Virus record (IMG/VR): IMGVR_UViG_3300046804_004006
Coordinates: 8,597-72,596 of that record
DNA: 64,000 nt
Direction: 5' to 3' (one strand)
Source: a virus
Shown here: piece by piece, positions 8,155 through 58,391 of the stretch
Position numbering within the stretch: the first letter of the stretch is position 1
How the letters are laid out: each line of letters opens with the position of its first letter
Translations under genes and position numbers: made by a program
Notes under the pieces: model-generated
Told to the model about the DNA's origin: nothing
Seen by the model: the letters and a program-made list of their open reading frames with translations, nothing else
The model's database searches: none

Positions 8155-8733
8155 ATGACTTCTTTCACTGTTGAAAAGCAAGGTCAAGAGATTAACTTTG
8201 AGAGTAAGTTTGATAATCTGCAAGATGCAAAGGAATATATTGTAAATAAACTGAACTATAATGATTTCGCAATGAATCTGGTTGAGAAGAAGAAAGTGAG
8301 TGAAAAGCAAATTGCTTGGATGCACTATCTTGCAACTCAAGGTGTCATTGATTCTCAAACTCCTGTTGAGGATGGTGAGTATATGAATGTGGTCAAGAAA
8401 ATGTATGATGCAGGTAAGAATCGCAAGACTAAGTTTCAAGTGCGACTGCCTGGTATTACTCTTTCCACTGTAAATCGAGGTGCAAATATCGGTTGTGTTT
8501 ATGTCTATGAAAACAACCAATATGTTGCTAAGATTACTCAAAATGGTGAGTTGATTGGTAATGTCAGTGAGGATGTAAAGAATCTTCTGGAGGATGCAAA
8601 TGAGAATCTTTTGCAACTGGCGAAGATTTATGGTCACGAATCTGGATCTTGCTCTATTTGTGGTCGCACACTGAACGATCCTCTCTCTGTGCAAATGGGA
8701 ATTGGTCCTATTTGTGCAAAACTGTTCAACTGA
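8155..8733 (+). CDS. DUF6011-like zinc-ribbon domain protein
   Basis: C-terminal CSICGRTLNDPLSVQMGIGPICA; start corrected from 8032. Confidence 0.75.
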   Translation: MTSFTVEKQGQEINFESKFDNLQDAKEYIVNKLNYNDFAMNLVEKKKVSEKQIAWMHYLATQGVIDSQTPVEDGEYMNVVKKMYDAGKNRKTKFQVRLPGITLSTVNRGANIGCVYVYENNQYVAKITQNGELIGNVSEDVKNLLEDANENLLQLAKIYGHESGSCSICGRTLNDPLSVQMGIGPICAKLFN

Positions 8734-10009: not shown

Positions 10010-11026
10010 ATGACATTCACTGAAGTTCTAGAATCTCTTCCGCAGTTTATTGATGAAATGCAACCTGATCTTGAGATGATTTATGATTTCATCACAGAAC
10101 AACTCTGCACTGAAGATTTAACTGATGCAGAATGGAGTCAAATTCTTAATCTTTACACTTCTTACTGATGAACGATTCTACACTTGATCTTTTTACAGAT
10201 CATGAAGATGCAGAAGATGCAACAATCGAAGAACTTGCTGCTGCATTAGAAATCACTGTTGATTATTTTCTCGCGGAGTTTGTTTGATGATTAAGTACAC
10301 CTTCGACATTATCACTCATCAACCAGTTTATGTTGTTTGTAATGTAAATCACCAACCACAAGTCATTACAACTAACATCTGCACTGCAATTCACAAACTT
10401 CAACAAGTAAAATGATTTTTCAAGTTACTGAAATTGAATTCGATTTCACTGATGATCTTGATGAAGAAGCATTAGATCAAGAAACACAAGATGAGATTTA
10501 TGATGAGGTTATTGGTCAAATCTGGGAAGCAGATGATGAAGATGATTTAATTGAAGAGATTACTTGTGCTACAGGTTGGTGCATTAAATCCATTGATTAT
10601 CGACACGTTCTAAAATGACACAATATACATACACTGTTATTGGTGGAGTTAATGAGTATGAATGTGATGTTAAGTCATTACAACTGTTTGATCGAAAATC
10701 ACAAGCAGAACAGTATGCAGAGGATATAAAGGAAAAGTGGGATTATGAATATGTTTCTATCACTGTAAAGGAGATTCAATGAAGAAGAAAAAGAAAGAAA
10801 AACATCAATTACTATCTAAAGCACAAGATGGTAATGAACTTCTTATTATTCTCAATGCACTGAAATGAAACAAGAAGCACAACTGATTGATGCTCTCTAT
10901 GAGGAACTTTATGCAAACAACTATTCACTCATCGAAAAGGTGATTGAAGAGTATGTGTTGAACTTAAATCCTATTGAAATGAATACTCTTGAAGATTTGA
11001 TTGTCAATAACTTTGGTATTGATTGA
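10010..11026 (+). CDS. run of about 7 tightly coupled short ORFs (includes 10010..10168 and 10412..10618)
   Basis: Consecutive TGATG/ATGA-type overlaps; mostly acidic peptides of about 30-70 aa. Individual boundaries were not all resolved. Confidence 0.55.
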
Positions 11027-11089
11027 TTAAAGATATAATGATATTGTTATATTAAAAATGTATTAAAAAAGATATATGAGTGTTTTATC

Positions 11090-11133
11090 TTTTCCACAAT
11101 AACTGTGGAAAAAGTATAATAAACTGTGGAAAA
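11090..11133. promoter_or_regulatory. three cyanobacterial-type DnaA boxes
   Basis: TTTTCCACA 11090-11098 (+); TGTGGAAAA 11104-11112 and 11125-11133 (-); next to an AT-rich tract at about 11027-11085. Confidence 0.6.
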
Positions 11134-11161
11134 CTTATGAATCTTAAGTCTTTTAAGTGTC

Positions 11162-11286
11162 TATAAATGTGCTCAGGTCTTGTGATCTTATAAATGCTCA
11201 TAAATGCTCATAAATGCTCATAAATGCTTATAAATGCTCATAAATGCTTATAAATGCTTATAAATGCCTCAGAGTCTTGTGATCTT
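11162..11286. repeat. 10-bp tandem repeat (TAAATGCT[C/T]A)x7 with flanking direct repeats
   Basis: Units at 11191-11260; TATAAATG..CTCAG(A)GTCTTGTGATCTT flanks both sides. Confidence 0.95.
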
Positions 11287-11293
11287 GGCCCGC

Positions 11294-11322
11294 AGTCTAT
11301 CAGCACTTGGAGATTTTGTCAA
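11294..11322 (-). promoter_or_regulatory. sigma70-type promoter, leftward
   Basis: Minus strand TTGACA-17nt-TAGACT. Confidence 0.65.
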
Positions 11323-11549
11323 GCACCCCCAGGACACATAAAAAACCCCCACACCTCACATTATAACAATATCACACTTCCGTTATATCATATAAGTCCA
11401 CATAGCATACTCTCCCTACATATAAAACACTCTCAGACACTTCTATATGCCCCTACAAGGCACTTATAGACACTCTTAGGTCTTACACCCTATAATTCAG
11501 TTATCAAGGTTCTATCAGAACTCTTTTATTCTATCATAAAATCTCCTAG

Positions 11550-11578
11550 TTGACAAGTGCTCATAATGTTGCTAGAGT
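11550..11578 (+). promoter_or_regulatory. sigma70-type promoter
   Basis: TTGACA-17nt-TAGAGT with extended TG. Confidence 0.6.
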
Positions 11579-11674
11579 AGGTTTGTTGCTGTTAAAGAGA
11601 GATAATATCAACAAGAACTTAAAGACCGTCCGAAGGACAACACGACCGAAGGGAGTGTTTCTATAAGACACTGA

Positions 11675-11703
11675 TTGACAATTACTATAAGACCTGATAG
11701 AAT
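11675..11703 (+). promoter_or_regulatory. sigma70-type promoter upstream of the 70-bp array
   Basis: TTGACA-17nt-TAGAAT with extended TG. Confidence 0.7.
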
Positions 11704-11720
11704 ATAACAATCAGAACACA

Positions 11721-11964
11721 CAAAGTTCATTCGTTATTAGAGAATGAATGTAATAGAATCTCTTATTGAGAATCAAAGATAATATCACTGAGAAATTCAT
11801 TCGTGATTAGATAATGTTCGTATAGAATTTCATATAAAGCACCTATTCTCAATAAGAACTCAAAGTTCATTCGTGATTAGATAATGTTCGTATAGAAGAT
11901 AAACAATACATATTCTCTAAGTATTGATATAAAAGTTCATTCGTGATTAGATAATGTTCGTATA
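11721..11964. repeat. 70-bp-period direct repeat array with non-identical spacers
   Basis: TTCATTCGTGATTAGATAATGTTCGTATA identical at 11796, 11866 and 11936; degenerate copy at 11726. Confidence 0.95.
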
Positions 11965-12177
11965 AGACTTTGCAGAGTATCGAAAAGTCATCAAATCCTA
12001 ATGAAAAGTATTCGTGTATTCTGCACATGCGTATAAATATTCACCAAGTCTTGTGTATTAAGTTCACAGGAACTTAGTGAATTCTTATCAGTTTCGTGAG
12101 TCGTATAAGAGTGGGGTTGACGGGGGATATAAGTTCTGCTACACTTACAACAGTCGTTCAGTTCTTCTTCACTTCTT

Positions 12178-12345
12178 ATGTCTAGTTCGTATCTCCTAGC
12201 ACAAAAGAATAAGTATCGTATCACGTTAGAACTTGACGTTCTCGGTGATTTCGATCCTCATCAGATTGATTGGAAGAAACTCTTTGACCTTGAGCATAAT
12301 GAATCGGTCAAGAGTTATGTAGAAGATCTCTCAGTGCCTTGGTAA
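12178..12345 (+). CDS. small hypothetical protein (55 aa)
   Basis: MSSSYLLAQKNKYRITLELDVLGDFDPHQIDWKKLFDL...; upstream TTGACG-17-TACACT (12117-12145). Confidence 0.7.
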   Translation: MSSSYLLAQKNKYRITLELDVLGDFDPHQIDWKKLFDLEHNESVKSYVEDLSVPW

Positions 12346-12770
12346 TTCTTATACATCAGTGAGTTTATTATCTCTTCGTGTAGATGTTCGTGTGATATAA
12401 TTATACTTTGCGTTGTTCTTTATACATTCTTCGTGTCAGTTGTTGATATAAACTCAACAATGTGCTGGCAGTTACTATAAAGAACTACGTGGAGATATAA
12501 TTATATCGTGCTGATTGTTCGTTGTGAGTATAAAGAACTGTGCTGATGTATTAGAATACACTAAGAATTGGTGGTAGTTAATATAAAGAATGACGAATAA
12601 TAATACTTATTCGTTGTCAGTTCTTTATTCGTTATAGCAGCGATTTTATGTTGTTTGTTATTGTTTATATCGGGCGTTGCGGTTATAAAAACGCTCCACT
12701 ACCCTAATCTATAACAACTCCGTACACCGACCTCGATTTATCTCTCATTCAAAAAATTCCGGAGAAAAAA

Positions 12771-12881
12771 ATGTTTACAAAATGGATTCATAAAAACGGC
12801 AAATCAAGACCAGATAAACGCTGTAAAAATTGTAAGACCCAAGCAAAGGCAAATGGTGCGCGTAAGAGAAAGAAGAAGTAA
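12771..12881 (+). CDS. small basic peptide (36 aa, CxxC)
   Basis: GGAG RBS, MFTKWIHKNGKSRPDKRCKNCKTQAKANGARKRKKK. Confidence 0.5.
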   Translation: MFTKWIHKNGKSRPDKRCKNCKTQAKANGARKRKKK

Positions 12882-13011
12882 ACCTTATTGGAACTTCTGG
12901 AAGGTTGTCTTAGTGGGATGGATAATTCGCTATCCTGGAAAAATGTTTAAAATTATCGGAGTCCCTCTTGGAATTCTTATAGCAATGATATATAAATCGG
13001 TGACGAAATAA
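12853..13011 (+). CDS. small membrane protein (52 aa)
   Basis: MVRVRERRSKPYWNFWKVVLVGWIIRYPGKMFKIIGVPLGILIAMIY... Confidence 0.55.
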   Translation: MVRVRERRSKPYWNFWKVVLVGWIIRYPGKMFKIIGVPLGILIAMIYKSVTK

Positions 13012-13032
13012 AAAATTTCCCGGAAAAATTTT

Positions 13033-13233
13033 ATGAAAAACATCGAAAAATTATATCACATATATGCAAAGGATCGGTGCATATATCACAATCTTCCAGA
13101 AAACAAATTCTATGAAACCTGGGATATGTTGCACAAAATGGTTGAGCTATTAGGTTCGAATATTTCAACAAAAGATTTACAATATGAGGAAGTATTTGTC
13201 AATAAACTTATATCACTAAACTCATCATATTGA
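13033..13233 (+). CDS. hypothetical protein
   Basis: ORF track. Confidence 0.7.
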   Translation: MKNIEKLYHIYAKDRCIYHNLPENKFYETWDMLHKMVELLGSNISTKDLQYEEVFVNKLISLNSSY

Positions 13234-13281
13234 CAAATACTAAATAGGACGATAAAATTGATCTGAAGGTTGATTTAACTT

Positions 13282-14049
13282 ATGGCAAAAGGATTTACTG
13301 TAAAAGCAGCAGCACCCAAACCCAAAGAAGGGGAATGGGATTATGATGCGATTAAAGAACGAATGAAAGGTAAGAGTATTGTCTTCTGTTTACCTGGAAG
13401 AGGATGTTCTTTTATTTTTCTAAAGGCATTTGTACAACTTTGTTTTGATCTTGTACAAAATGGAATGAGTATTCAAATTAGTCAAGATTACTCATCAATG
13501 GTTAACTTTGCACGTTGTAAGTGTTTAGGTGCAAATGTTCTTCGTGGACCAAAGCAAGTTCCTTGGGATGGAAAACTTCAATATGATTATCAACTTTGGA
13601 TTGACTCGGATATTGTCTTTGATTCTAACAAATTCTGGCAACTCTGTGATCTTTCTTTGAGTGAAGATGGTACTGAGCGTGAGATTACTGCTGGATGGTA
13701 TGCAACAGAAGATGGTCACACAACCTCTGTCGCACATTGGTTAGAAGAAGATGATTTCCGCAAAAATGGTGGAGTTATGAATCACGAAACTGTGGAATCA
13801 ATCAGCAAGCGTCGTAAGCCATTCACTGTAGATTACACAGGTTTTGGGTGGGTTATGATTAAGAATGGTGTTTTTGAAAATCTTGAATATCCCTGGTTTG
13901 CTCCAAAGATGCAAGTCTTTGAGTCTGGTAATGTTCAAGATATGTGTGGAGAGGATGTATCATTCTGTCTTGATGCAAAAGAAGCAGGATTTGAGATCTG
14001 GTGTGATCCTCGAATTCGTGTAGGACATGAGAAAACTCGTATTATTTGA
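13282..14049 (+). CDS. GT-A fold (family 2-like) glycosyltransferase
   Basis: WIDSDI DxD motif, TGFGWVMIK, GEDVSFC, VGHEK; upstream TTGACA-17-TAAAAT at 13230-13258. Confidence 0.8.
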   Translation: MAKGFTVKAAAPKPKEGEWDYDAIKERMKGKSIVFCLPGRGCSFIFLKAFVQLCFDLVQNGMSIQISQDYSSMVNFARCKCLGANVLRGPKQVPWDGKLQYDYQLWIDSDIVFDSNKFWQLCDLSLSEDGTEREITAGWYATEDGHTTSVAHWLEEDDFRKNGGVMNHETVESISKRRKPFTVDYTGFGWVMIKNGVFENLEYPWFAPKMQVFESGNVQDMCGEDVSFCLDAKEAGFEIWCDPRIRVGHEKTRII

Positions 14050-15029: not shown

Positions 15030-15431
15030 ATGCCTCTAGAGAGAGTAAGTCAGGGATTTAAAGACATTAGTATGACATTTCAGGCGAATCCCCTGAATAA
15101 CGATCTTATTGCGTTAAAAAATGAAAGTGCTATTGCACGTTCAATACGTAATATTGTTTTTACTCTCCCTGGAGAAAAATTTTTCAATGAAAATTTTGGA
15201 TCTAAGATTTCTAGAACTATTTTTGAAAATGTAGATAATATCTCAGCATCAATTATAGTCGATGAAATACGTCAATCAATTATAAACTATGAGACTAGAG
15301 TTCAATTGATTGATGTCCAAGCATATCCAGACTATGATAATGGTAGTTTTGATGTGGTACTTATATACAATATAATAGGTGCAGATGTTCCTGCACAACA
15401 GTTACAATTTGTTTTGCAACCAACTAGGTAA
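15030..15431 (+). CDS. gp25: baseplate wedge subunit gp25
   Basis: AIARSIRNIVFTLPGEKFFNENFGS...INYETRV; late-promoter ATAAATA at 15003. Confidence 0.92.
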   Translation: MPLERVSQGFKDISMTFQANPLNNDLIALKNESAIARSIRNIVFTLPGEKFFNENFGSKISRTIFENVDNISASIIVDEIRQSIINYETRVQLIDVQAYPDYDNGSFDVVLIYNIIGADVPAQQLQFVLQPTR

Positions 15432-17359: not shown

Positions 17360-20300
17360 ATGACAGACAAAAGAGTTCAATTTAATACTATTGTTCAGAA
17401 TCAACTCCCTGCATATGTTAGAGAGGAGTTTCCTTTAATTTCTGAATTTTTAAAGCAGTATTATCTTTCACAAGAATTTCAAGGTGCTCCAACTGATTTA
17501 ATTCAAAATATTGATCAATATATTCGATTAAATGAGACCACAAATCTTGTAGATTCTGTCATTTTAAAATCAAACATATCTTTTGTTGATACTACAATTG
17601 AAGTAGATTTAGGATTTTCTCCTACAGGAACAAATGGGTTTCCGGATTCTTATGGATTAATTAAAATTGATGATGAAATTATTTTATATACCTCAAAAAC
17701 TTCCACTGCAAATTCTGCTTCATTTAATGGATGTATAAGAGGATTTAGTGGCATTTCTTCTTTGAACGATCAAACTGCCACTGGAGAATTGGTATTTTCT
17801 ACCAGTTCTGCGGAAGAGCACATTGGAACAGAATATAATTCGGATGGATCAATAAAACAAAAGGGATCAACGATATTAAACTTAAGTAACTTATTCTTAA
17901 AACAATTTTTACTTAAGACAAAGTATCAACTTCTTCCGGGTTTAGAAGACAGAGAATTATTTTCTGACTTAAATGAAGATCTTTTTATAAAACAGTCTAA
18001 AGATTTTTATGGAAGTAAAGGCACTGACGAGTCTTTTAAAATTCTCTTCAAGTCTCTTTATGACGAAGAAGTAAAAATTATTAAACCTAAAGATTTTCTT
18101 CTTACTCCATCAAATGCACAATACACTATCACAAATGATTTAGTTGTTGAAAGTATTTCAGGAGATCCTCTAGAACTTAAAAACTCAACACTATATCAAA
18201 ATTCATATCTTGATAATTTTACAAAATCATATGCACCTATCACATCAGTAGAAAAAATATCTTCTAGAGATGGAAAAACTTTTTATAAACTTAGTGTAGA
18301 TGCTGGTTATAATAGGGATATTGTAGTTGATGGAGCAACTTATGGAAACTTTTTAGTTCACCCAAAAACTAAAGTAATAGGAGAAGTATCTCCAAATTCA
18401 ACAATTCTTGATGTAGACTCAACGGTAGGATTTCCAACTTCTGGGCAACTTTTTGCTAGTTATAATGACGGAACAGCGGGAGTTATTTCATATACATCCA
18501 AATCATTAACTCAATTTTATGGTTGTTCAAATATTGTAAAATCTATTAATAATGCAGAGAATGTTGGATTAAACACTTATGCATCAAATAGTGATGGAAG
18601 TATTAAAGTCAGGATCAATTCTGTTATTAGTGGTTTAGATGTGAGAAGTGATACTCGTTATCTATCTCCCAAAGAATCTATACAGATAAAAACATTAGGA
18701 GTTTCTGCAAAAGACTTTATATCAAAAAACTGGTATTATAATATTTCATCCAGATACGAAGTTCAAGGTAGTCCAGTTTTAATAGATACCTCCGATAAAA
18801 CATACAGATTAACCCTGAAAACTCCCCACTATCTTAAGATTGGAGATTCTATATCAATTGTAGATAGTAATAATGCATCGAAGTCCTCTACTGTAGTTGA
18901 TATTAACTCAGAGTATTCAATAACCATTAGAGATCAAGGTGAACTATCTTTATCAACAAACTACACTATTAAAAGAAATATTCTAAAACCAATTTCAAAT
19001 ACATTTTCAAATTTATCTTCATATACATCAAATGTTCAAAATGTATATAAGGATTCTGGAAAAACTTTATTAGCATCTAATTCAATTCCATCATATTATC
19101 GCCAACCATTAAATGTAATTGATAGATCTATTACTTTTTCCGGAACTTTTATTGGAGATGAATTTGTAATATCAAATAAAGATCACGGTTTTTATACTGG
19201 AGATGTAGTATATTATACTCCACAAAAGGTTACTACAACATCATTTAGTGATGATGGAATTGAAATTCAACAAACATCTATACAGTCTTCTTTGTTTGAT
19301 GAAGGACTTTATTTCATCAAACGAGTTAACGAAACCGCAGTTAAATTTGCAAAAAGTAAATTTGACATTTACTATTCTGAATTATATAAGGATGACTCAT
19401 CTAAATCTAAGTATGTCAAATTAACTGAATCTAAAAGTGTTTCTGATAACAAAATAGAAATTTATAAATTTAATTCAAAAACAGTATTACCACAAAAAAT
19501 ACTTAGGGAAATACAAGATCCAATAAGTGATGGAAAAACCTATCCAACCTCCCCAGGATTTAATGGTATACTTGTCAATGGAGTGGAAATTTTAAACTAC
19601 AAATCAAGCGATGTAATTTATCATGGAAAAATAAACTCCATTGATATTTTATCGCCGGGATTGGATTACGATGTCATCAATCCACCGGAATTAAAAATTA
19701 GCGATAGAATTGGAACAGGAGCTACTGGATATGTTTCTGTTAATGGTTCATTAAGAGAAATACAGATTATAGATCCTGGATTTGACTATGTTGATGTCCC
19801 AACAGTTAAGATTACTGGTGGTAATGGATCAGGAGCTTTAGCTTCTGTAAATATGAAGTTAATAGATTATTATGCAAGTTTTAATTCAGATTCCGCATCA
19901 AATCAAATTGGAATAGGTGTGACGGTTTCAACTATAGGATTTAGCACTTATCATAAATTTAGAGATGGAGAAACTGTAATATATGATCCAAAATATCAAC
20001 AATCTGTAGGTGGTATAACCACAAACTCAACTTATTTTGTTTCAGTAAAAGATTCTAATACAGTAAAACTTCATAAAACATTTGATGATGCAGTTTCTGG
20101 AATCAACACTATTACTCTAACTTCTTATGGATCTGGAATACATTACCTTAAATCGTATAATAAAAAGTCAGTAGTTGGTTCCATCAACGTAGTTTCTGGT
20201 GGTTCTAATTATCAAAATAAAAAAAGAACAACAGATATTACCGGAATAAGTACATCTTTAAATCAAGTTACTATCACCAACCATGATTATCAATCCGGAG

Positions 20301-23300
20301 AAATCGTAAAGTATGCAACAGAGGGTGCTTCTATTGGTGGTTTAATTAGCGGATCAGAATATTATTTAACCAAAATAGATGATAATAATTTTAAATTATC
20401 AAATATTGGCATAGGAGTTACTGAAAAAGACTTTTTCTATAGAACAAATCAATATATAGATTTTACTAGTGTAGGTGTTGGAACTCATACCTTTAATTAC
20501 CCTAATATTTCTGTAACTTTATCTGGAAAAATTGGCATTTCTTCTATTGGATCTGAGACTTTTGAGGCACAAATTCAACCAGTATTTAGAGGAGAAATTA
20601 CTTCAGTACATTTAAAGAATTCTGGAGTTGGTTATGGATCTTCAGATATTATCAATATTGTTAAAGAACCTGAAGTTTCTTTAGTATCCGGACAAGATGC
20701 CCAATTACTTCCAGTAATTAGTAATGGAAGAATTTCTGAGGTTTTGGTCCTAAGCACTGGTAGAAATTATAACTCTGTCCCCATCTTAACTATAGTTGGT
20801 GATGGTGTTGGTGCAGTTGTAACTCCTATTATTGAAAATAATAGTTTAAAGTCAGTTAAAGTAATAGAACCTGGTCAAGGATATTCTTCAAAAAACACTT
20901 CAATATTAGTTTCTTTTCCAGGCAGCGGATGTTCATTTAAATCAAATATTCAAACTTGGAGAGTTAATCTATTTGAACGAAATTTTAATACTTTTACTTC
21001 TGATGATGGATTTATTGAAAGTAGTATTAATGACGAATATGAACTCCAGTACTGCAATATCTATGCTCCAAGAAAATTAAGAGAGAGTTTATTTTCCGTA
21101 GATTCTTTAGGAAAAACTTTATATGGAACAAAGGATCTGAGTAAAAATAATGCGGGAGTAGAAGAGTTTAATGCAATAAAACAAAAACATTCTCCAATTA
21201 TAGGTTGGGCATATGACGGACATCCAATTTATGGTCCATATGGATATTCTAAAAAATTCGGCGGGGTGATCACCCAAATGAAGTCCGGATACAAGATGAA
21301 TTCTTCAAGAGTATCTGGACCACCAACTTCAATTTATCCTTTAGGGTTTTTTGTAGAAGATTATACTTACTTTAAAACTAACGATGAAACGGTTCTCGAT
21401 GAAAACAACGGAAGATTTTGTATAACACCAGAGTATCCAAAAGGAACATATGCATACTTTGCAACCATCAACAATTTATCTTCAGATTCTTCTGGACCAT
21501 TTTATCAATACAGAAGACCTGTTTTCCCATATTTAATAGGAAATAATTTTAAGTCAATTCCAAATAAATTTAACTACGACAAAAATTCAAATCAAGATAG
21601 TTATGATTTAAATAAAACTTCTTGGATTAGAAATACAGATCCATATAATTTAAGAAATGGCAACGTTAATTATGAATACCTTTCTTTACCAAATAATTTA
21701 AATCAAACTTTAGAAGTTAAGTCAGTTTCACCCGGATCTGTTGAAAGTATCAAAATATCTTCGGGAGGTTTAAACTATAAAGTAAATGATGAAATTATCT
21801 TTGATAATTCAAATACTAATGGATTTGGTGCTTCAGCAAAAATTTCTAAAATATTTGGAAAGTCTGTCAATAATATTAGTGTTGCCACAAGTTCCGTTAC
21901 TGGAGTGGAAATTTATCCAGAAAATAAAATCGGATCTTATACAATTTTTTCACAAAATCCTCATAATTTTAAAAATGGAGATCTGGTTCAAGTATCTGGG
22001 TTGAGTACGAGCACATTTAAAATCAACAATTCATACCCAGCAGGAATATCCACAAATACTCTCACTCTAGTTGGATTAGGATCAACTTCAATAGGAATTA
22101 AAACTACTGGAGTTACTGGAATTGTAACATATATCAATGTATTAGGAAACTTAAATTACCCCAACATCAGAGAAAATGATATTCTTACAATAAATTCCGA
22201 AAAAATTAAAGTTTTAAATGTAGATGCAAAACTTTCTAGAATCAGAATTATTAGAGAAATTGAAAGCACAGTAGGGTCCGCACACACTGTTGGATCTAAA
22301 ATATATGAGAATCCAAGAAAGTTAATAGTTAATACTGAATTTTCTACCACATACAATTATAAGTTAAATAAAGAAATTTATTTTAATCCAATAGAATCGG
22401 TTGGACTAGGAACAACTTCTGGAGTTGGAATAGGAACTACAATCTTCTTTTCAAATCCAGGAATTGGATTGACTGAAATCTTTATTCCAACAAAAACAAT
22501 ATATTTACCAGGGCATAACTTAAATACTGGAGATCAACTAACATATTCAACAAATGACGGAAAAGGTCTATCAGTCTTAATAGATTCCTCTTCAGGAGTA
22601 AGCACGTTAACAGATCAACAAATTCTTTATGTTGCTAAAGTGTCTGATGACTTAATTGGAATTTCTACTGTTAGAGTTGGACTTGGAACCACAGGTACTT
22701 TTGTTGGAATAGCAAGTACGCAAAGAAATTCTACTACATTATTCTTCTCCGGTATTGGAACTGGAATTTATCATAGTTTTAAAACAAATTATGATAAATT
22801 ATCAGGAAAAATTACAAAAAATATTGTTACTGTTTCTACAGCACAAACACATGGTTTACAAAACGGAGACACTGTTTATATTGATGTAAATCCATCAATT
22901 TCTACTACGGTAACTCTAAAGTATAATGATTATCATAGAAAAGTTTTAATAAACGCCAAAACTTTTATTTCAAGTGGAGTTAACACTTCAACAAGTTTGA
23001 TAACAATTGATAATCATGGATTTGAAACTGGAGATAAAGTTATTCACACTTCCCCATCTCCAGCGCAGGGTTTAGAAAACAATAAAATTTATTACGTAGT
23101 AAAATTTGATGATAATTCATTTAAACTATCAAATACTTATTATAACTCATTAAGTTCAAATCCTTCAATTGTAGGAATAGCAAGTACTTCGAATGGAGAA
23201 ATTTCTTTAATCAATCCACCTTTAAATGCATATAAAAATTCTTCTATAATATTTGATTTATCAGATTCTTCTTTATCATACATTAAACAATCTACAAATT

Positions 23301-26300
23301 ACCCAGCTTTTGATTTGAATTTTTATCTAGATGAAAACTTTACTCAACTTTACGATAAAAATCCAGAAAGCTCCACATTTGAGGTTCAAAAATCCAGCGG
23401 CGTTGTTGGAGTTTCTACTGATGCAAAAGTAACTTTATTTGTCAATGAATATACTCCAAAAAATTTATTTTATAAATTAGACCCATTATTTGATAGTGAT
23501 ATTCCCATAGAAAAGCAAGAAATCAATGTAGATTCTTCGGTTTTATCAAATAATAAAATTAATGTTGAAAAGAGTGTTTATAGCGGAAAGTATACAATTT
23601 CTGCGGGATCAACTATATTTACATATTCACTAAATAAACTTCCGGAAAATAATTCTTATGTATCTACATCTTCATCTATTACATATCAAACCGATTCACT
23701 AAGCGTAACGGGAGCAATATCTGAAGTTGAAATTACAAACAAAGGAAGAAATTATTATTCTCTCCCTGGAATTTCTTCTATTGTTTCAACTAGCGGTAGT
23801 GGTTCTATTCTGGAACCATTTAGCAACTCAATAGGAAAAATTAAAAATACTACAATCAAAAACATTGGATTTGATTTTTCTTCAGATTATACAGTTAAAC
23901 CAAGTTCTTCTTTACCACAATTATTAAAAATTGATCCACTAGCCTCATTTTCTTCTATTGGAATTAGTTCTTTTGGTAGAGGATATACTTCTGCACCAAA
24001 TATATTAGTTTTTGATGGGAAAACTAACCAAATTATTACTGATGTAGACTTAAGATATAATCTAGGAGATTCTCAAGTAACAATTTTTAAAAATACATAT
24101 GGTATAAACAATGTTACTCCAAGATTTATTCCAGTACAAAATTCAAATGGAGTTGGTATAAATTCAATTTCATTTAATTCAACAACTAAGGATGTTACGG
24201 TTAGATTGTCCGTTGGGTTTAGCACTATAAACTCATTCCCATTTGAAGTAAATGATAAAGTTTTAATCGAAAATATCAGTGTTGGTGTAGATTCTACTGC
24301 AAAAGGATATAATTCAGAAAATTACGATTATGCGTTGTTTACTATTACATCAGTAGATCAAAATATAGGTGGAATAGGATCCATAACTTATAATCTTTCT
24401 GAATTCCTTAGTGATGGAGAGTATCCTGGTACATATGATTCTATAAATTCTGTTGGAAGAGTAATACCCGAAAAATATTTTCCAACTTTTAGTCCAATCT
24501 TGCAAATTGGAGATTATATTGAAGGGGAAACAGTAGAATCAAATTCATCTTTAGGTATAGTTGAAAAATGGGATAAAAAATCCCAAATATTAAAAGTATT
24601 ATCCAATCAAGATTTCAATAATGATGCAATTGTAAAGGGTCTATCATCAAATACTCAGGGTATTGCTTCATCAATAACTTCTTTTGAATCATACTTAACT
24701 TTAAATTCATTATCTAAAGTAGAAAGGGGATGGGAAACAAACTCTGGATTTTTGAATGAAAATTTACAAAAAATTCAAGACAGTTTTTACTATCAAAATT
24801 TTTCATACTCATTAAAATCTAAAGTTGATTTTGATTCCTGGAAGGATGCGGTTGGCACTTTAAATCATACATTAGGATTTAAAAAATTCTCCGATTATCA
24901 GTTAGAATCTTCTTTAGGGCAGCAAGAGCAAAATTCAATGCTGGTTGAATCAAACCTATCTTCGTTTGAAATTATAACTGACATTGTGGAATATGTAGAT
25001 TTAAACTGCGTTTACGATTTTGATTTGGTTACGGAAAATTCTATCGAATTAAATTCAAAAATAATTTCCGATGAAATAGTTTTTAATTCCAGAATATTGA
25101 CCGATTACATGGAGTCTGTGGGAAATAGAGTTCTTTCTATAGACGATATAAGTGGATTATTTAATAGCAATCCACGTTCCACACAATACTCAGAGGTCCA
25201 TAGATTTTTATTATCAGATGCAAGATCTCAAAAATATATAACTTTCGTAAGTGATAAAAGGTATACTGAGCAATCACAAACATCAATTATTACTCTTTTA
25301 CACGATAATTATATTTCTTTTATGAATCAGTATGGAAGAGTTGAAACTTACTATGACCAAGGTTTTTTTGACTTTACTATTGAGGGTAGTGAAGGTGTTC
25401 TTTTATTCTATCCAACAAACTATCAAGTCAACAACTATAATGTTACAACTCTTTCATGGAATTTAAAGGACAATTTAATAGGAGTTGGATCTTCGTCCTT
25501 TGGAGACACCGTTCTAATAAACACAAGTAGCGTAAGTGTTTCTTCAGGATCAACAACTATAGTTGGTATTAATAGTTCTTTTAGTTCTGTTAAAGTTTTA
25601 GTAGAAATTTCAGGAAATAATGGAGAGTATGAGTTTAATGAGATAAGTGTAATACATGACGGAACAAATACACATATGATTGATTATGGTCAATTATCGA
25701 ATTTAAATTACACTCCATTTGAAAGTTCTGGATTAGGGACCTTTAATTCATATCTTTCAGGATCTCAAATAAAAATTGATTTTACTCCAAATGTAGGAAC
25801 AGCAACTACCATAAACACGATACAAGTTGCAATTGCAAATACATCATCGACTGGTATTGGTACTTTTGATATGAAACACGCCAAACTGTCATCACAGTCG
25901 GTTTCAATCGCATCTTCATCATCTCCTACAGCAAATTCAGTTGCCAACCTATCAAATGACTATGATGCAACTTATTTTGTTCTTCAAGTTACTGATACAA
26001 CTAATAATAGACTTCAACTCTCCGAAATTATGTTAATAAACAATGACTCAGAAATTTATTTAACTGAGTTTGGAAATATTGAAACAAATTCTGGATTAGG
26101 AACTTTTGGTGCTTTTAGAAGTGGAACTGATACTGTTCTATCATTTACACCAATACAAAATATTGATACACAAGTAAAAACTTTTTATACTTCTTTACGA
26201 CATCAAGATGATTCTAAGGATGTTGTTGATTTAATCAATGCAACAATAGAAACAAATTTTGGAACTTATTTTGGGGCAGAGACTGACATCAAACGCCAAT

Positions 26301-29300
26301 TTGACTTAAAACATAAAAATGTTCCTATTTTTGAAAGAAGTTTTAATGGAGATGATACTTCAATTGTGAGTATTGACAGCAATACTATTACAATTCCAAA
26401 TCATTTTTATGTAACGGGAGAAAAAGTTAATTATTATCATGCAGGATCCGGAACAACTCAGGCTATTGGAATTGCAACAACAACCTTTGTCTCAGTTGGA
26501 TCCACAGACAAACTTGCATCAGAAGTTTATGTCGTCAAAATTAATGATGATAAAATTAAACTTGCTTCAAGTTCAGAAAATGCTTTGAAATTTGTCCCAC
26601 AAACTATAGATATAACGAGTGTTGGTATTGGAACTTCACATCGTTTTGTATCGACAAACCAAAATGCAAAGGTCTTACTATCAATTGATAATGTTATTCA
26701 GTCTCCCGTTGTTTCTACTGCAGTTACTACAACATTATCAAAAAATATATTTACAACTGATGATACAATATACTTCAGCGGAATCACTTCATTTTTTGGA
26801 GGTGACCTGATTAAAATTGGCGACGAAATTATGAGAATTGATGGGATTGGTATTGGAAGCACTAATGCAATATCAGTAACTAGACCTTGGTTGGGAACAG
26901 TAGTTTCAGGATATTCTACTGGAGATCTTGTTACGAAGGTAATCGGAGATTATAATATTATTGATAACATTTTAAATTTTGTAACTGCCCCATATGGAAA
27001 TACTCCGTTTGGAACAATTACAAATGCTCCAGATGAAAGAGATTGGAGTGGAATATCAACCGGATCTAGTTTTCACGGGAGAGTATTTTTAAGATCCGGA
27101 GAACAAGATACTTCAAACGAGACATATCATAAAAATTATATTTTTGATGACATTTCTTCTAAATTTAATGGGTCGGAGAGAAATTTCAGATTAAAATCGA
27201 ATTTATCCGATGTGACCGACATATCTTCAGAAAACGCGGTAATCTTAATAAATAACGTTTTTCAAGGTCCAGAATTATCCAATGATTATACATTATCAGA
27301 GGTTGCTGGAATAACTACTATTTCATTTACTGGCACAGCAACATCTATTTCTTCGGATGTAAACACTTCAAATTTACCTTCAGGTGGAATAATTGTTTCT
27401 GTTGGTTCAAGCGGAGGATTTGGATATCAACCATTGGTATCCGCAGGTGGAACATCTGTAGTGTCAATATCAGGAACAATTCAATCTGTCAGTATCGGAA
27501 ATAGTGGTTCCGGATATAGATCAAAATCAAAGTATGAAATTACAACTAAAACTTCTCAAGCAGTTGGTGTTGGTTCAACAATAGTTTATTTGGAAAATGA
27601 CAATAGTATATTTAATATATTAAGTCTTTTAAATTCTGGTTCAAATTGCAAGATTGGCGTTGGAACTTTTATAGATTTAACTACAATTGTATCTGCAGGA
27701 TCCACATTTATTTGTATTGGGGTTGGAAGTACAAGTAACTACATTATTCCAGCAGAAACTTCTACGGCTATTGAAATAGAAAATCCCCAAATTGGAATAG
27801 TGAATGTTGAAGTTGTTACCAGCTCTTCTGGAATTGCAACTTATACTCATGTTGGATTTGCTACAATAAGAAATGGTAATGTATCTTCTCCGGTTTTTAT
27901 AACAAAAGTATCTTCGGGATATACTAACACAAATCCACCAAACGTTGTTTTTGATGATCCACAATCCTATTCGGATATTCCATTGATTTACAGTTCCAAT
28001 TATGCTTCTGGCGGTGGATCAAATGCAACTATAGACATTGTTGTTGGACAAGGTTCTAGTGTTATAGATTTTGAAGTTAAAAATACCGGATATGGTTATG
28101 GAATTGGAAATGTTTTAACGATTCCTGTTGGAGGATTAGTTGGAATTCCTACAACTTCCGGATTTAAAGAATTTGAAGTCACAATTCAAAATGTTTTCTC
28201 TGATAAATTTAGTGGATGGTCTATTGGATCTTTACAAGTTTTTGATAGTATTGATAGATATTTTGATGGAAGGAGAGTTTCTTTCCCACTTTCTTTATCA
28301 GGAAACATAACTACCATAAATTCTTCTAAAGGATCAAAAATATCTCTCCAGGACACAATTTTAATCTTCTTAAATGATATTTTACAAGTTCCGGGTGAAG
28401 GATATACTTTTAATGGTGGCAGTGCAATAACATTTACAGAAGCACCAAAAGAAGGAGATCAGTCAAAAATTATTTTCTATAAAGGAAGTGGTGATGGCAT
28501 CGATGTTATTTCCCGAGAAATTATAGAAACAGTTAAAATTGGAGATGATTTAAGAATTACTTATGATTCATCTCAGGGACAGTCACCTACTTTATCCGAA
28601 GACTTTAGAACAGTATATGATATCAAATCCACAGATTCAGTCAAAACAAATCCTTATTTTGGACCAGGTAACACTAACAATACTAACTTACTAAGACCAG
28701 TTGTTTGGTGCCGTCAAACTGAAGATAAGATTATTAATGAAAAAGTAGTTGGTAAGGATAGGGAAATTTATACCCCAAATATAAATCCATTTGCATACAT
28801 CATTAAAAATGTAGGTATTGGTTCAACCGCAATTTATGTTGATAATTTGAAACCTTTCTTTAATGCTCAAAATGAAAATGACACTTCATTATCTTTCCAA
28901 AACAGTATAAAATTTATATCACAAGATACTATTTCTGGGGCAATTGGCACTGCAGTCGTATCCACTGCAGGAACAATTTCTTCAATTGTTATTAGTGATG
29001 GTGGTGTAGGATATTCAACTTCACCTACAATAAGCATTGGAAGCACTAATGGAATTGGAATTGGAACCACATCAACAGCCCTTGGAACAGTTTCAATTAG
29101 TATTGGTGGAACAGTAACTGGTGTAGCAATAACTAATCCAGGATTTGGATATACAACTTCTAGTCCGCCATCGGTTTTAATATCCTCACCTACACTAATT
29201 TCAGAAACAAATTCAGTTTCTTCTTATTCAGGAGACTCTGGAATAGTTGTTGGATTTGGAACAACAACTATTAGTACACAAACTCAACTAATATTTGATC

Positions 29301-29779
29301 TTTATATCCCACAAAATTCATATTTAAGGGATATTAAATATGTCGGTACAGCAGTGACTATTAGTTCTTTATCAAATAATGATTATTTTATTGTATATGA
29401 CTCAAACGTTGGATCTTCTTCTACAACTTTAACTTCTCTTGATGTTTCTAACAACACTATTGGTATAGGAACTCAATTTGTAGATAATGTATATGAGGTA
29501 AATTCATCACAAATAGTATCTACCAATGTCAGTGGAGTGGGAGTTACTTATGTCAGGAGAGTTTTTGTAAAAATTTCAGAGAATTTTGCTTATGGTTCAG
29601 GAATTTCTACTTCAAATTATTTTGGATCTTATAGTTGGGGAAAAATTAATTTAAAATCTAGAACAGGAATAAATTCACACTCTTCCTATACTTTAAATGG
29701 TGTGTCAGGAATTTCAACTTCAACTATTGTTCAGAGATCTAATCCACTAAAATCAAAAAATTATGATATTTCAAATTGA
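17360..29779 (+). CDS. gp7: giant baseplate wedge initiator (gp7-like) structural protein, 4139 aa
   Basis: Lies between gp6 and gp8; N-terminal QLPAYVREEFPLISEFLKQYY and FYGSKGTDESFKILFKSLY; IQDSFYYQNFSYSLKS; internal YHYH-like domain; GxGY repeats. Confidence 0.8.
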   Translation: MTDKRVQFNTIVQNQLPAYVREEFPLISEFLKQYYLSQEFQGAPTDLIQNIDQYIRLNETTNLVDSVILKSNISFVDTTIEVDLGFSPTGTNGFPDSYGLIKIDDEIILYTSKTSTANSASFNGCIRGFSGISSLNDQTATGELVFSTSSAEEHIGTEYNSDGSIKQKGSTILNLSNLFLKQFLLKTKYQLLPGLEDRELFSDLNEDLFIKQSKDFYGSKGTDESFKILFKSLYDEEVKIIKPKDFLLTPSNAQYTITNDLVVESISGDPLELKNSTLYQNSYLDNFTKSYAPITSVEKISSRDGKTFYKLSVDAGYNRDIVVDGATYGNFLVHPKTKVIGEVSPNSTILDVDSTVGFPTSGQLFASYNDGTAGVISYTSKSLTQFYGCSNIVKSINNAENVGLNTYASNSDGSIKVRINSVISGLDVRSDTRYLSPKESIQIKTLGVSAKDFISKNWYYNISSRYEVQGSPVLIDTSDKTYRLTLKTPHYLKIGDSISIVDSNNASKSSTVVDINSEYSITIRDQGELSLSTNYTIKRNILKPISNTFSNLSSYTSNVQNVYKDSGKTLLASNSIPSYYRQPLNVIDRSITFSGTFIGDEFVISNKDHGFYTGDVVYYTPQKVTTTSFSDDGIEIQQTSIQSSLFDEGLYFIKRVNETAVKFAKSKFDIYYSELYKDDSSKSKYVKLTESKSVSDNKIEIYKFNSKTVLPQKILREIQDPISDGKTYPTSPGFNGILVNGVEILNYKSSDVIYHGKINSIDILSPGLDYDVINPPELKISDRIGTGATGYVSVNGSLREIQIIDPGFDYVDVPTVKITGGNGSGALASVNMKLIDYYASFNSDSASNQIGIGVTVSTIGFSTYHKFRDGETVIYDPKYQQSVGGITTNSTYFVSVKDSNTVKLHKTFDDAVSGINTITLTSYGSGIHYLKSYNKKSVVGSINVVSGGSNYQNKKRTTDITGISTSLNQVTITNHDYQSGEIVKYATEGASIGGLISGSEYYLTKIDDNNFKLSNIGIGVTEKDFFYRTNQYIDFTSVGVGTHTFNYPNISVTLSGKIGISSIGSETFEAQIQPVFRGEITSVHLKNSGVGYGSSDIINIVKEPEVSLVSGQDAQLLPVISNGRISEVLVLSTGRNYNSVPILTIVGDGVGAVVTPIIENNSLKSVKVIEPGQGYSSKNTSILVSFPGSGCSFKSNIQTWRVNLFERNFNTFTSDDGFIESSINDEYELQYCNIYAPRKLRESLFSVDSLGKTLYGTKDLSKNNAGVEEFNAIKQKHSPIIGWAYDGHPIYGPYGYSKKFGGVITQMKSGYKMNSSRVSGPPTSIYPLGFFVEDYTYFKTNDETVLDENNGRFCITPEYPKGTYAYFATINNLSSDSSGPFYQYRRPVFPYLIGNNFKSIPNKFNYDKNSNQDSYDLNKTSWIRNTDPYNLRNGNVNYEYLSLPNNLNQTLEVKSVSPGSVESIKISSGGLNYKVNDEIIFDNSNTNGFGASAKISKIFGKSVNNISVATSSVTGVEIYPENKIGSYTIFSQNPHNFKNGDLVQVSGLSTSTFKINNSYPAGISTNTLTLVGLGSTSIGIKTTGVTGIVTYINVLGNLNYPNIRENDILTINSEKIKVLNVDAKLSRIRIIREIESTVGSAHTVGSKIYENPRKLIVNTEFSTTYNYKLNKEIYFNPIESVGLGTTSGVGIGTTIFFSNPGIGLTEIFIPTKTIYLPGHNLNTGDQLTYSTNDGKGLSVLIDSSSGVSTLTDQQILYVAKVSDDLIGISTVRVGLGTTGTFVGIASTQRNSTTLFFSGIGTGIYHSFKTNYDKLSGKITKNIVTVSTAQTHGLQNGDTVYIDVNPSISTTVTLKYNDYHRKVLINAKTFISSGVNTSTSLITIDNHGFETGDKVIHTSPSPAQGLENNKIYYVVKFDDNSFKLSNTYYNSLSSNPSIVGIASTSNGEISLINPPLNAYKNSSIIFDLSDSSLSYIKQSTNYPAFDLNFYLDENFTQLYDKNPESSTFEVQKSSGVVGVSTDAKVTLFVNEYTPKNLFYKLDPLFDSDIPIEKQEINVDSSVLSNNKINVEKSVYSGKYTISAGSTIFTYSLNKLPENNSYVSTSSSITYQTDSLSVTGAISEVEITNKGRNYYSLPGISSIVSTSGSGSILEPFSNSIGKIKNTTIKNIGFDFSSDYTVKPSSSLPQLLKIDPLASFSSIGISSFGRGYTSAPNILVFDGKTNQIITDVDLRYNLGDSQVTIFKNTYGINNVTPRFIPVQNSNGVGINSISFNSTTKDVTVRLSVGFSTINSFPFEVNDKVLIENISVGVDSTAKGYNSENYDYALFTITSVDQNIGGIGSITYNLSEFLSDGEYPGTYDSINSVGRVIPEKYFPTFSPILQIGDYIEGETVESNSSLGIVEKWDKKSQILKVLSNQDFNNDAIVKGLSSNTQGIASSITSFESYLTLNSLSKVERGWETNSGFLNENLQKIQDSFYYQNFSYSLKSKVDFDSWKDAVGTLNHTLGFKKFSDYQLESSLGQQEQNSMLVESNLSSFEIITDIVEYVDLNCVYDFDLVTENSIELNSKIISDEIVFNSRILTDYMESVGNRVLSIDDISGLFNSNPRSTQYSEVHRFLLSDARSQKYITFVSDKRYTEQSQTSIITLLHDNYISFMNQYGRVETYYDQGFFDFTIEGSEGVLLFYPTNYQVNNYNVTTLSWNLKDNLIGVGSSSFGDTVLINTSSVSVSSGSTTIVGINSSFSSVKVLVEISGNNGEYEFNEISVIHDGTNTHMIDYGQLSNLNYTPFESSGLGTFNSYLSGSQIKIDFTPNVGTATTINTIQVAIANTSSTGIGTFDMKHAKLSSQSVSIASSSSPTANSVANLSNDYDATYFVLQVTDTTNNRLQLSEIMLINNDSEIYLTEFGNIETNSGLGTFGAFRSGTDTVLSFTPIQNIDTQVKTFYTSLRHQDDSKDVVDLINATIETNFGTYFGAETDIKRQFDLKHKNVPIFERSFNGDDTSIVSIDSNTITIPNHFYVTGEKVNYYHAGSGTTQAIGIATTTFVSVGSTDKLASEVYVVKINDDKIKLASSSENALKFVPQTIDITSVGIGTSHRFVSTNQNAKVLLSIDNVIQSPVVSTAVTTTLSKNIFTTDDTIYFSGITSFFGGDLIKIGDEIMRIDGIGIGSTNAISVTRPWLGTVVSGYSTGDLVTKVIGDYNIIDNILNFVTAPYGNTPFGTITNAPDERDWSGISTGSSFHGRVFLRSGEQDTSNETYHKNYIFDDISSKFNGSERNFRLKSNLSDVTDISSENAVILINNVFQGPELSNDYTLSEVAGITTISFTGTATSISSDVNTSNLPSGGIIVSVGSSGGFGYQPLVSAGGTSVVSISGTIQSVSIGNSGSGYRSKSKYEITTKTSQAVGVGSTIVYLENDNSIFNILSLLNSGSNCKIGVGTFIDLTTIVSAGSTFICIGVGSTSNYIIPAETSTAIEIENPQIGIVNVEVVTSSSGIATYTHVGFATIRNGNVSSPVFITKVSSGYTNTNPPNVVFDDPQSYSDIPLIYSSNYASGGGSNATIDIVVGQGSSVIDFEVKNTGYGYGIGNVLTIPVGGLVGIPTTSGFKEFEVTIQNVFSDKFSGWSIGSLQVFDSIDRYFDGRRVSFPLSLSGNITTINSSKGSKISLQDTILIFLNDILQVPGEGYTFNGGSAITFTEAPKEGDQSKIIFYKGSGDGIDVISREIIETVKIGDDLRITYDSSQGQSPTLSEDFRTVYDIKSTDSVKTNPYFGPGNTNNTNLLRPVVWCRQTEDKIINEKVVGKDREIYTPNINPFAYIIKNVGIGSTAIYVDNLKPFFNAQNENDTSLSFQNSIKFISQDTISGAIGTAVVSTAGTISSIVISDGGVGYSTSPTISIGSTNGIGIGTTSTALGTVSISIGGTVTGVAITNPGFGYTTSSPPSVLISSPTLISETNSVSSYSGDSGIVVGFGTTTISTQTQLIFDLYIPQNSYLRDIKYVGTAVTISSLSNNDYFIVYDSNVGSSSTTLTSLDVSNNTIGIGTQFVDNVYEVNSSQIVSTNVSGVGVTYVRRVFVKISENFAYGSGISTSNYFGSYSWGKINLKSRTGINSHSSYTLNGVSGISTSTIVQRSNPLKSKNYDISN

Positions 29780-57957: not shown

Positions 57958-58391
57958 GTTTTGATCTTGATACCATACAAAAAATGTGGGAGCAAGATTC
58001 TAAGATTGACATTGATAATCTACATACAGAATCTTTAAATATCCCAGTTCTTCATTCAAAGTATTTTGAACTTTATAATACTATTTTTCTCTTAAGAAAA
58101 AAAGCAGAGCAGCAGAAAAGAAACATTCGACATGAAAGATACGAATATTACTCAGGAAAAGCAGATCCAGAAACATATATCGATAACCCATTCCCCAAAA
58201 AGATTCGAGATAAAGATACAATGCAAAAGTATCTTGATGCTGACGAAAAACTTTCAACTGTTTGCTTAAAGATAGATTACTACGATACGATGCTCGTTTA
58301 TATCGAAAGCATCTTAAAGATGATTCAAAATAGAACCTATCAAATTAAAAACTCTATTGAGTTTATTCGTTTTCAGTCTGGGTTAGGGTAA
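57954..58391 (+). CDS. uvsY: recombination mediator UvsY
   Basis: IPVLHSKY, YYSGKA, YLDADE, RTYQIKNSIEFIRF. Confidence 0.92.
   Translation: MSFDLDTIQKMWEQDSKIDIDNLHTESLNIPVLHSKYFELYNTIFLLRKKAEQQKRNIRHERYEYYSGKADPETYIDNPFPKKIRDKDTMQKYLDADEKLSTVCLKIDYYDTMLVYIESILKMIQNRTYQIKNSIEFIRFQSGLG

Follow-up and report, generated by a model that had tools for sequence, protein, structure and literature searches.

Repeat arrays of about 70-bp period beside an origin-like module in T4-like cyanophages: a family of candidate protein-binding sites

What is a row of near-identical direct repeats, with the dimensions of a CRISPR array and a promoter pointing into it, doing in a gene-free gap of a phage genome? 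Few viruses of aquatic primary producers are as abundant as the T4-like cyanophages, and the start of their replication and the control of their early genes are hardly known. The locus described here is a concrete candidate for such control, as it combines a module of DnaA boxes and a geneless promoter, at a place resembling that of the T4 origin oriE, with, in one clade, an additional array of strongly selected bipartite sites. Should the repeated sites bind a protein on DNA, no iteron-type element would have been linked to a cyanophage origin before them; should they work in RNA, they would amount to a new kind of phage decoy RNA. An earlier reading, made from the letters of the sequence alone, had wavered between DNA iterons and a transcribed repeat RNA of guide, decoy or antitoxin-mimic type. 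We conclude that the array belongs to a conserved family of cis elements, of the iteron or repeat-element kind, and is not a new CRISPR-like system.

The window, by which we mean the whole stretch of 64,000 nucleotides that was analysed (positions 8,597 to 72,596 of the IMG/VR record IMGVR_UViG_3300046804_004006), comes from a 72.6-kb linear record with an estimated completeness of 34%. It is a fragment of an uncultured T4-like cyanomyovirus: its genes, all on the plus strand, include those for a T4-type portal, major capsid protein, sheath, terminase, the gp6 and gp8 baseplate proteins, UvsW and a gp55-like sigma factor, and its capsid protein shares 82-84% identity with the counterparts in marine single-cell viral records and in the Synechococcus phages S-B43 and S-B05. 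The motif ATAAATA occurs 23 times on the plus strand of the window and twice on the minus strand, mostly right before late genes. The array sits in a gene-free gap of about 1.15 kb (11027-12177), between small early-type ORFs and a 55-codon ORF, p55; the array starts at 11723, and the region as a whole precedes baseplate gene 6 (start at 15379) by 3.4-4.3 kb (Table 1).

Table 1. Features of the array locus; positions are those of the window, and L numbers designate related loci
Feature	Position	Strand	Description
Three perfect cyanobacterial DnaA boxes	11090..11133 (11090, 11104, 11125)	one forward, two reverse	Consensus search
10-bp AT-rich tandem repeat	11190-11267		7.8 copies; Tandem Repeats Finder
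Leftward sigma-70-type promoter	11294..11322	-	Geneless on its own strand; reads toward the 10-bp repeat and the DnaA boxes
Sigma-70-type early promoter	11675..11703	+	TTGACA, 17 nt, TG-extended TAGAAT; 11/12 plus TG; points into the array
Unit 1 core, degenerate	11723..11757	+	First half-site kept, second lost; 71% identity; orthologous to the first unit of L037
Unit 2 core	11793..11827	+	Two direct TTCGT half-sites, 17 bp apart
Unit 3 core	11863..11897	+	Sequence reading and repeat finder
Unit 4 core	11933..11967	+	Sequence reading and repeat finder
Three 35-bp linkers ("spacers")	11758-11792, 11828-11862, 11898-11932		Between cores; AT-rich, unconserved
Fifth degenerate unit	12003..12039	+	Overlaps the late-promoter-like TATAAATA at 12032-12039
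Degenerate half-sites, closely spaced	12093..12112	+	Immediately upstream of the -35 of the p55 promoter
p55 promoter	12117..12145	+	TTGACG, 17 nt, TG-extended TACACT
p55, 55-codon gene downstream of the array	12178..12345	+	Matches phrog_12516 (function unknown)
Second gene-free stretch	12346..12770	+	Scattered TTCGT sites (to 12650), all on the plus strand

Units, cores and a family of related loci

Direct reading of the sequence bears out the exact 29-nt core that the sequence-only reading had placed at 11796, 11866 and 11936, and the degenerate copy that it had seen ahead of the first exact core is equally sound. A repeat finder returns a 35-nt unit in four copies (units 1 to 4 in Table 1) with spacings of 70, 70 and 70, the copies being 71, 100, 97 and 91% identical to the reference copy from the first to the last, and Tandem Repeats Finder assigns the array a period of 70 and a score of 220. 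What had been taken for a remnant near 12004-12016 is present but is more than a remnant: it is a fifth degenerate unit in register, with TTCGTG at 12011, 71 bp past the TTCGTG at 11940, and CGTATA 19 nt further on, as in the full units. The three window cores are near-identical, while the linkers, of similar length, are mutually unlike, as in arrays of CRISPR type; a 13-mer found inverted in spacers 1 and 2 is real, but relatives do not keep it. Three exact 29-mers at an exact period, together with the recurrence of the array in 54 related viral loci, exclude chance, and the 70-base repeat array is real.

The family was searched for in a viral contig collection with a pattern of two 11-nt motifs 54-64 nt apart. 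This two-core pattern matched 56 stretches, 54 of which are loci of related phages; L100, whose 66-bp repeat is a different one, and L112, a 17-bp tandem repeat in a fragment of a giant virus, were rejected as members. Together with L027 (which lies on the same contig as L086) and the window, the 54 stretches make up 56 oriented loci, in which the units form chains of two to six at spacings of 69-74 bp, 72 being the commonest. In 52 of the 56 the array is followed downstream by a p55 homologue, which in 49 of those 52 starts 170-390 bp after the start of the last core; a gene for a 255-aa protein and then gp6 come next. The arrays are thus a conserved family at one syntenic place. There are also variant loci (L102, L106, L117 and L132) with dense TTCGT half-sites and two units 74 bp apart, in which p55 is missing.

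The presence of the array is patchy among relatives, and the array is therefore accessory: the cultured phages S-SM2, Bellamy and S-B05 possess p55 and lack the array, and among the 80 closest gp6 relatives fetched, a blastn match to the array was found only in L027 and L037. The exact 29-mer had no match in the viral collection (from which the window's own record is possibly omitted), and blastn searches with positions 11000-13000 and with the array of L084 gave no match among 50,697 phage records.

An alignment of 131 unique units separates each unit into about 32 conserved nucleotides and about 40 that are nearly information-free. The conserved part comprises the 11-mer, a brief A-rich lead before it and, some 17-19 nt after the first TTCGT, a second TTCGTAT, so that every core is made up of two half-sites in direct orientation, TTCGTGATTAG... 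and ...TTCGTAT, at a distance of about 17-19 bp. Eleven of the alignment columns had served to find the units, and their conservation is partly ascertainment; the second half-site lies outside the search motif, and its CGT, within the 16 nt that follow the selecting 11-mer, still carries 1.8 bits. On the 3' side, conservation of the core tapers gradually, with no sharp edge. Across 13 unique arrays of four units at 72-bp spacing, the mean pairwise identity of the core (40 columns) is 0.71, 0.84, 0.88 and 0.88 from the first unit to the fourth, against 0.58, 0.65, 0.58 and 0.62 for the linker (32 columns), in an ungapped comparison to which one close lineage contributes 8 of the 13 arrays. The linkers of different units are unrelated to each other, whether they are compared within arrays (identity 0.341) or between arrays (0.336; 40 unique arrays), and when related phages are compared position by position, their linkers are clearly homologous and have diverged by substitution. 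The core alone is under selection. In L127 two adjacent units are identical across all 71 nt, linker included, which indicates that copy number changes via duplication of whole units. Cores are somewhat more alike within a genome (identity 0.703) than between genomes (0.647), and L113 carries its own core variant in three units, which points to mild concerted evolution or to co-evolution with a partner.

All array copies have the same orientation and occupy one locus per genome. On the plus strand of the window, 16 of the 46 occurrences of TTCGT fall in 11700-12650, that is, in 1.5% of the window, where 0.68 would be expected (the copies in the array are not independent of one another), as against 1 of the 40 reverse complements. 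Up to 1.5 kb upstream of p55, array-bearing loci (n = 47) hold 5-14 TTCGT and 0-2 complements, whereas array-less loci (n = 14) hold 0-3 and 0-4 upstream of p55, respectively. The 11-mer is confined to the array locus in all five records of 72-156 kb, with all 17 matches in arrays and none for a control pattern. Degenerate half-sites run past the last unit as far as the -35 of the p55 promoter, and in relatives TTCGT abuts this -35 or, in L027, overlaps it.

An origin-like neighbourhood

The DnaA boxes about 590 bp before the array were found with the cyanobacterial consensus as given in PMC4674748; the 72.6-kb record has no others, and a reversed control pattern has no match. S-SM2 has two of its three DnaA boxes at the homologous place, and at least one perfect box occurs there in 15 of 39 distinct related loci, with two or more in 14. 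A leftward promoter similar to that of the window lies 137-162 bp before p55 in eight array-less relatives, and can be recognised by eye in S-SM2 and Bellamy. The boxes precede p55 by 210-410 bp in array-less phages versus about 1040-1670 bp in array-bearing ones, and the array clade has therefore added about 1 kb of noncoding DNA to an older module. This neighbouring module is probably a replication origin. The GC skew of S-SM2 gives no origin signal and tracks gene orientation; it is uninformative, as nearly all genes lie on one strand. In our literature search there was no report of DnaA boxes in a cyanophage, the works that contained both terms being, by their titles, about host genomes; for phage Syn9, a review describes a single origin that is predicted only.

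The closest analogy is with oriE of T4, which the annotation of the T4 record places at 79355, 1.7 kb upstream of gene 6 (start at 81081). According to a review, oriE requires an early promoter and contains direct repeats at even spacing, whose role is ill defined; in the T4 sequence, these are six copies at 24-bp spacing inside gene 5, where they coincide with a coding repeat of that gene. Both loci belong to T4-like phages, lie a few kilobases upstream of gene 6 with small early genes adjoining, and have an early sigma-70 promoter and leftward transcription, opposite to that of the late genes; both have evenly spaced direct repeats composed of a conserved and a variable part. By contrast, the T4 repeats are coding and have a period of 24 bp, while those of the array are noncoding with a period of 69-74 bp; the two loci share no sequence similarity, and DnaA boxes are not described for T4 in the source text at hand. 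The array locus matches T4 oriE in position and logic, but not in sequence.

Of the 56 oriented loci, 44 have a strict promoter pattern in the interval from the array to p55, and with such a promoter of its own p55 can be transcribed without need of the array in cis. The p55 protein has no Pfam family; its model (pLDDT 80.6) shows almost no regular secondary structure and has no Foldseek match in the PDB, and the Atlas gave hypothetical viral clusters only. The suspicion, raised by an N-terminal motif, that p55 might be a ribbon-helix-helix binder was dropped in view of a model nearly devoid of secondary structure and of any fold match. As the most conserved residues of p55 are identical in phages without TTCGT sites, p55 is unlikely to bind the core. 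A comparison of five neighbouring genes with the presence of the array yielded no candidate binder by co-occurrence, and no Rep-like initiator family was recognised among the neighbouring genes.

Protein-binding sites, RNA and other readings of the array

Our leading interpretation, which we hold tentatively, is that the array is a cis-acting, iteron-like row of protein-binding sites within an early control region and probable origin. Each unit of 69-74 bp would consist of a selected core of about 32 bp with two direct half-sites and of a linker of about 40 bp that is free to drift, and the two to six cores would load several copies of one sequence-specific protein, of phage or host origin. 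The cores would be placed between the DnaA-box module with its divergent early promoters and the p55 promoter, and, with weaker half-sites reaching up to the -35 of the latter, their occupancy could determine how active this promoter, the origin or both of them are. We infer three elements of this picture: that a protein binds, that the bound form is DNA rather than a transcript, and that the module nearby acts as an origin. The restriction of selection to the core, half-sites at a -35, the lack of RNA structure, and DnaA boxes beside a single locus all favour a DNA-binding array.

Iterons are classically spaced in helical register. The array resembles the iterons of plasmids and phages in that its direct repeats all point the same way and stand in a gene-free stretch, with a single such locus in each genome, and the order of an iteron replicon is echoed by the succession of DnaA boxes, an AT-rich repeat, the repeats themselves, and weaker sites where the promoter of the following small gene lies (for the general picture, see PMC4980987). 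It differs in having a bipartite core of about 32 bp, in the lack of a recognisable initiator gene, and in being dispensable in close relatives; moreover, neither the period of 69-74 bp nor the half-site distance of 17-19 bp is a multiple of the helical repeat, which argues against the iteron reading. Cultured relatives keep the DnaA-box and promoter module without the array, and the array is hence unneeded for the basic function of an origin. The iteron half of the sequence-only proposal accordingly stands with circumstantial support, from the DnaA boxes, the geneless promoter and the oriE-like position. Strong promoters that point into the array in several lineages speak against it, and the strict orientation even of isolated TTCGT sites fits a signal at the RNA level equally well.

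The second reading, to which we give a smaller though still substantial share of belief and which we consider rather unlikely, is that the array forms the body of a putative early noncoding RNA or long leader made from the upstream sigma-70 promoter, in which the 32-nt cores would be modules for an RNA-binding protein or nuclease (a sponge or decoy), or which would be cut into pieces of about 70 nt. The TTGACA-17-TAGAAT promoter that had been noticed ahead of the array is confirmed, 20 bp before the first unit and with a TG extension besides. Taken alone, this promoter is not above chance, since the promoter scan gave 23 promoter-like sites versus 22.0 ± 5.1 in shuffles; its hexamers and TG are kept in L037, L083 and L084, where the spacer between them varies, and L113 has an equivalent 12/12 promoter ahead of its array. 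In these loci, in L108 and in the window, a strong promoter thus leads into the array, and the stretch up to the following promoter is free of ORFs, as expected of a noncoding RNA, but these loci represent only 6 of 37 distinct upstream contexts; in other lineages differing modules adjoin the first core, sometimes exactly at its start. The TTCGT sites share the orientation of transcription (16 versus 1), which would suit an RNA signal, whereas the half-sites at the -35 of a promoter, and two degenerate units of L089 that lie between divergent promoters, would not.

In favour of an RNA, the core has stop codons in all three plus-strand frames, and no open frame is common to all arrays on either strand; a coding repeat on the minus strand was accordingly rejected, no reading frame being shared across arrays. 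The fold tests are less kind to the RNA reading: the plus strand of 11710-12040 folds at -59 kcal/mol as against -55.7 ± 4.2 kcal/mol in shuffles (z = -0.78; 24 of 100 shuffles reach an equally good fold), which agrees with the earlier remark that the repeat has no clear hairpin and leaves the array with no conserved secondary structure. For the minus strand z is -2.1, a value owed to the inverted 13-mer in two linkers, which is unconserved in relatives. A hairpin does follow the last core directly in some lineages, and terminal segments fold better than internal ones (mean -4.28 versus -3.13 kcal/mol, Mann-Whitney p = 0.009, the related sequences not being independent), yet the terminal hairpin is broken in L087, L088 and L128. 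A scan of the window at Rfam gathering thresholds gave a tRNA only, and a permissive scan gave nine matches, all far below threshold; tRNA-like units were rejected, as ARAGORN finds only the tRNA-Ala at 229-301. Among 16 public sequencing runs, no RNA run was listed as containing positions 10500-13500. There is no Rfam family to support an RNA, and no target complementary to the core in the window (0 for 16-mers with up to 2 mismatches).

A more specific form of the RNA reading, which we regard as unlikely, holds that the array encodes an early multi-module decoy RNA: a strong host-type promoter would drive a transcript with two to six copies of an unstructured 32-nt module, and this transcript would sequester an RNA-binding protein or nuclease of the host, such as a defence effector or a turnover enzyme. 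It would be an accessory weapon that one clade of T4-like cyanophages acquired and then enlarged by duplicating units; the accessory and patchy occurrence of the element, which is often seen with anti-defence factors, speaks for the RNA reading as a whole. No repeat sponge RNA for T4-like cyanophages is on record in the freely accessible literature that was searched.

It is less probable again that the array is recombination or selfish repeat DNA, serving as homology patches for modular shuffling or persisting as a neutral minisatellite. Such a role would account for the different upstream modules that join exactly at the first core across lineages, for units dispersed among other modules in L089, L094 and L131, and for a copy number of two to six with a fresh duplication in L127. 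A precedent exists in the PeSL-mediated shuffling of T4-like phages (PMC4122927): like the array, PeSLs are short conserved noncoding motifs of the plastic early region of T4-like genomes, in one orientation and at module junctions. Unlike the array, they are described as a stem-loop plus a sigma-70 promoter that flank ORFs at many places in the genome, while the units here lack both defining elements, stand head to tail with no ORFs between them, and keep to a single locus per genome instead of being scattered over hyperplastic regions. Nor would a neutral satellite hold a 32-bp core while its linkers decay to an identity of 0.34.

The CRISPR-type reading, according to which the array would be a CRISPR-like mini-array or an RNA anti-CRISPR, with repeats that mimic a host repeat and spacers that act as guides or fillers, is close to refuted and in our view highly improbable. 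Dimensions drew attention to it, with a repeat of about 35 nt, spacers of about 35 nt and, in some lineages, a promoter on one side as in CRISPR arrays, mini-arrays and RNA anti-CRISPRs; the slightly greater likeness of cores within genomes (0.703 versus 0.647) fits as well, and a cyanophage with a CRISPR array of its own is described, Nostoc phage N-1 (PMC4916379). Spacer turnover had been named beforehand as the check on a guide-type RNA array, and the spacers prove stable, being positional orthologues that are inherited and diverge by point changes, while growth proceeds by whole-unit duplication; this refutes the guide array. The gradual 3' fade of core conservation and the degeneracy of the end units on both sides likewise count against CRISPR, as does the lack of a hairpin. 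The absence of cas genes that had been remarked on holds for the 27 ORFs of at least 150 aa in the window, among which no Cas family is represented. A search of the 50,697 phage records with the linkers gave no meaningful match (best E-value 0.3, cover at most 14%), and thus no protospacers there. Nor is there a cognate cellular array: in a search of one genome for each of 185,579 species, with a pattern that requires two exact 11-mers, the two-core pattern occurs in six stretches (L141-L146), none of them a related array, namely three microsatellites, two isolated pairs and one true CRISPR of a Bacillota MAG, which has a different repeat and contains part of the motif by chance. The doubts about CRISPR that were voiced from the sequence alone are therefore upheld, and the CRISPR or guide RNA reading is rejected.

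The antitoxin RNA of a type III toxin-antitoxin system is built of tandem repeats of about 34-45 nt that directly adjoin one another, and a terminator and the gene of an endoribonuclease toxin come after it. Tandem direct repeats with a promoter ahead of them and a small gene behind recall this order, but an antitoxin RNA or a phage mimic of one, as had been suggested, is scarcely credible and as a mimic refuted, because the units of 69-74 nt are conserved over only 32 nt and not over the other 40, with no contiguous repeats of about 36 nt, because no terminator lies between the array and p55, and because the downstream gene has 55 codons, a promoter of its own and no Pfam family, and exists without the array in cultured phages.

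Several tiny ORFs that are annotated across the region in cultured phages are doubtful, and, whichever reading holds, the arrays explain why assemblies of these phages break at the array locus. Short-read contigs from four DNA runs break in and around the array, their joints, with sides of 21-43 nt, supporting no conclusion; diverged relatives co-occur in the samples.

DnaA boxes and promoters upstream of the array

Three perfect matches to the cyanobacterial DnaA-box consensus, the only ones across the 72.6-kb record, lie upstream of the array of 70-bp repeat units. A similar arrangement is found in the cultured cyanophage S-SM2 (with two of its three boxes at the homologous place) and is shared by 15 of the 39 related loci compared, each with at least one perfect box there; in the literature searched, we found no earlier report of DnaA boxes in cyanophages. 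In the S-SM2 counterpart (57997-58355, our locus L138), two very small ORFs, annotated as SSM2_086 and SSM2_087, cover the promoter region as well as the DnaA boxes; they are probably not real genes.

Between the boxes and the array, each copy of a 10-bp tandem repeat includes a late-promoter-like ATAAAT. The conserved leftward promoter beyond it has no gene on its own strand and points toward the tandem repeat and then the DnaA boxes; its product could serve as a primer at an origin or be some other noncoding RNA. Farther right, a second promoter is followed by two small hairpins (about 11625-11655) that have the motif CCGAAGG in common. This promoter and hairpin module is kept in L037, L083, L084 and L089, and may represent a small RNA.

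Features around the array (window coordinates)
Feature	Position	Detail
Three DnaA boxes	11090-11133	inverted pair 5 nt apart, third copy 21 bp further
13-bp direct repeat	11177-11189, 11274-11286	one copy each side of the tandem repeat
10-bp tandem repeat	11190-11267	7.8 copies
Leftward promoter	11294-11322	sigma-70 type, - strand
Second rightward promoter	11550-11578	within module 11550-11660
Late-promoter-like site	12032-12039	TATAAAT(A/C)
Three 53-bp direct repeats	12463-12610	TATAAAGAA motif in each
Conserved noncoding block	12630-12720	immediately upstream of next small genes
Giant structural ORF	17360-29779	4139 aa
Giant structural ORF	31364-38833	2489 aa

The array end, p55 and a variant control region

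Directly 3' of the last array unit there is often a late-promoter-like site, as in the window, L027, L093 and L129, and the conserved 55-codon gene p55 downstream may therefore have an early promoter as well as a late one. Four loci (L102, L106, L117 and L132) have a variant control region, near an HNH endonuclease gene, in which 8-10 TTCGT half-sites are tightly packed at spacings that alternate between about 12 and 17 bp; p55 is absent from this region.

Sequences beyond p55

The 53-bp repeats are located in a second gene-free stretch, beyond p55, and L085 and L134 are among the relatives in which motifs similar to theirs are seen again. Conservation of the noncoding block that follows reaches the marine phages S-SM2 and Bellamy. 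Farther downstream, the two giant structural ORFs are counterparts of the S-SM2 genes annotated as gp7 and VrlC-like.
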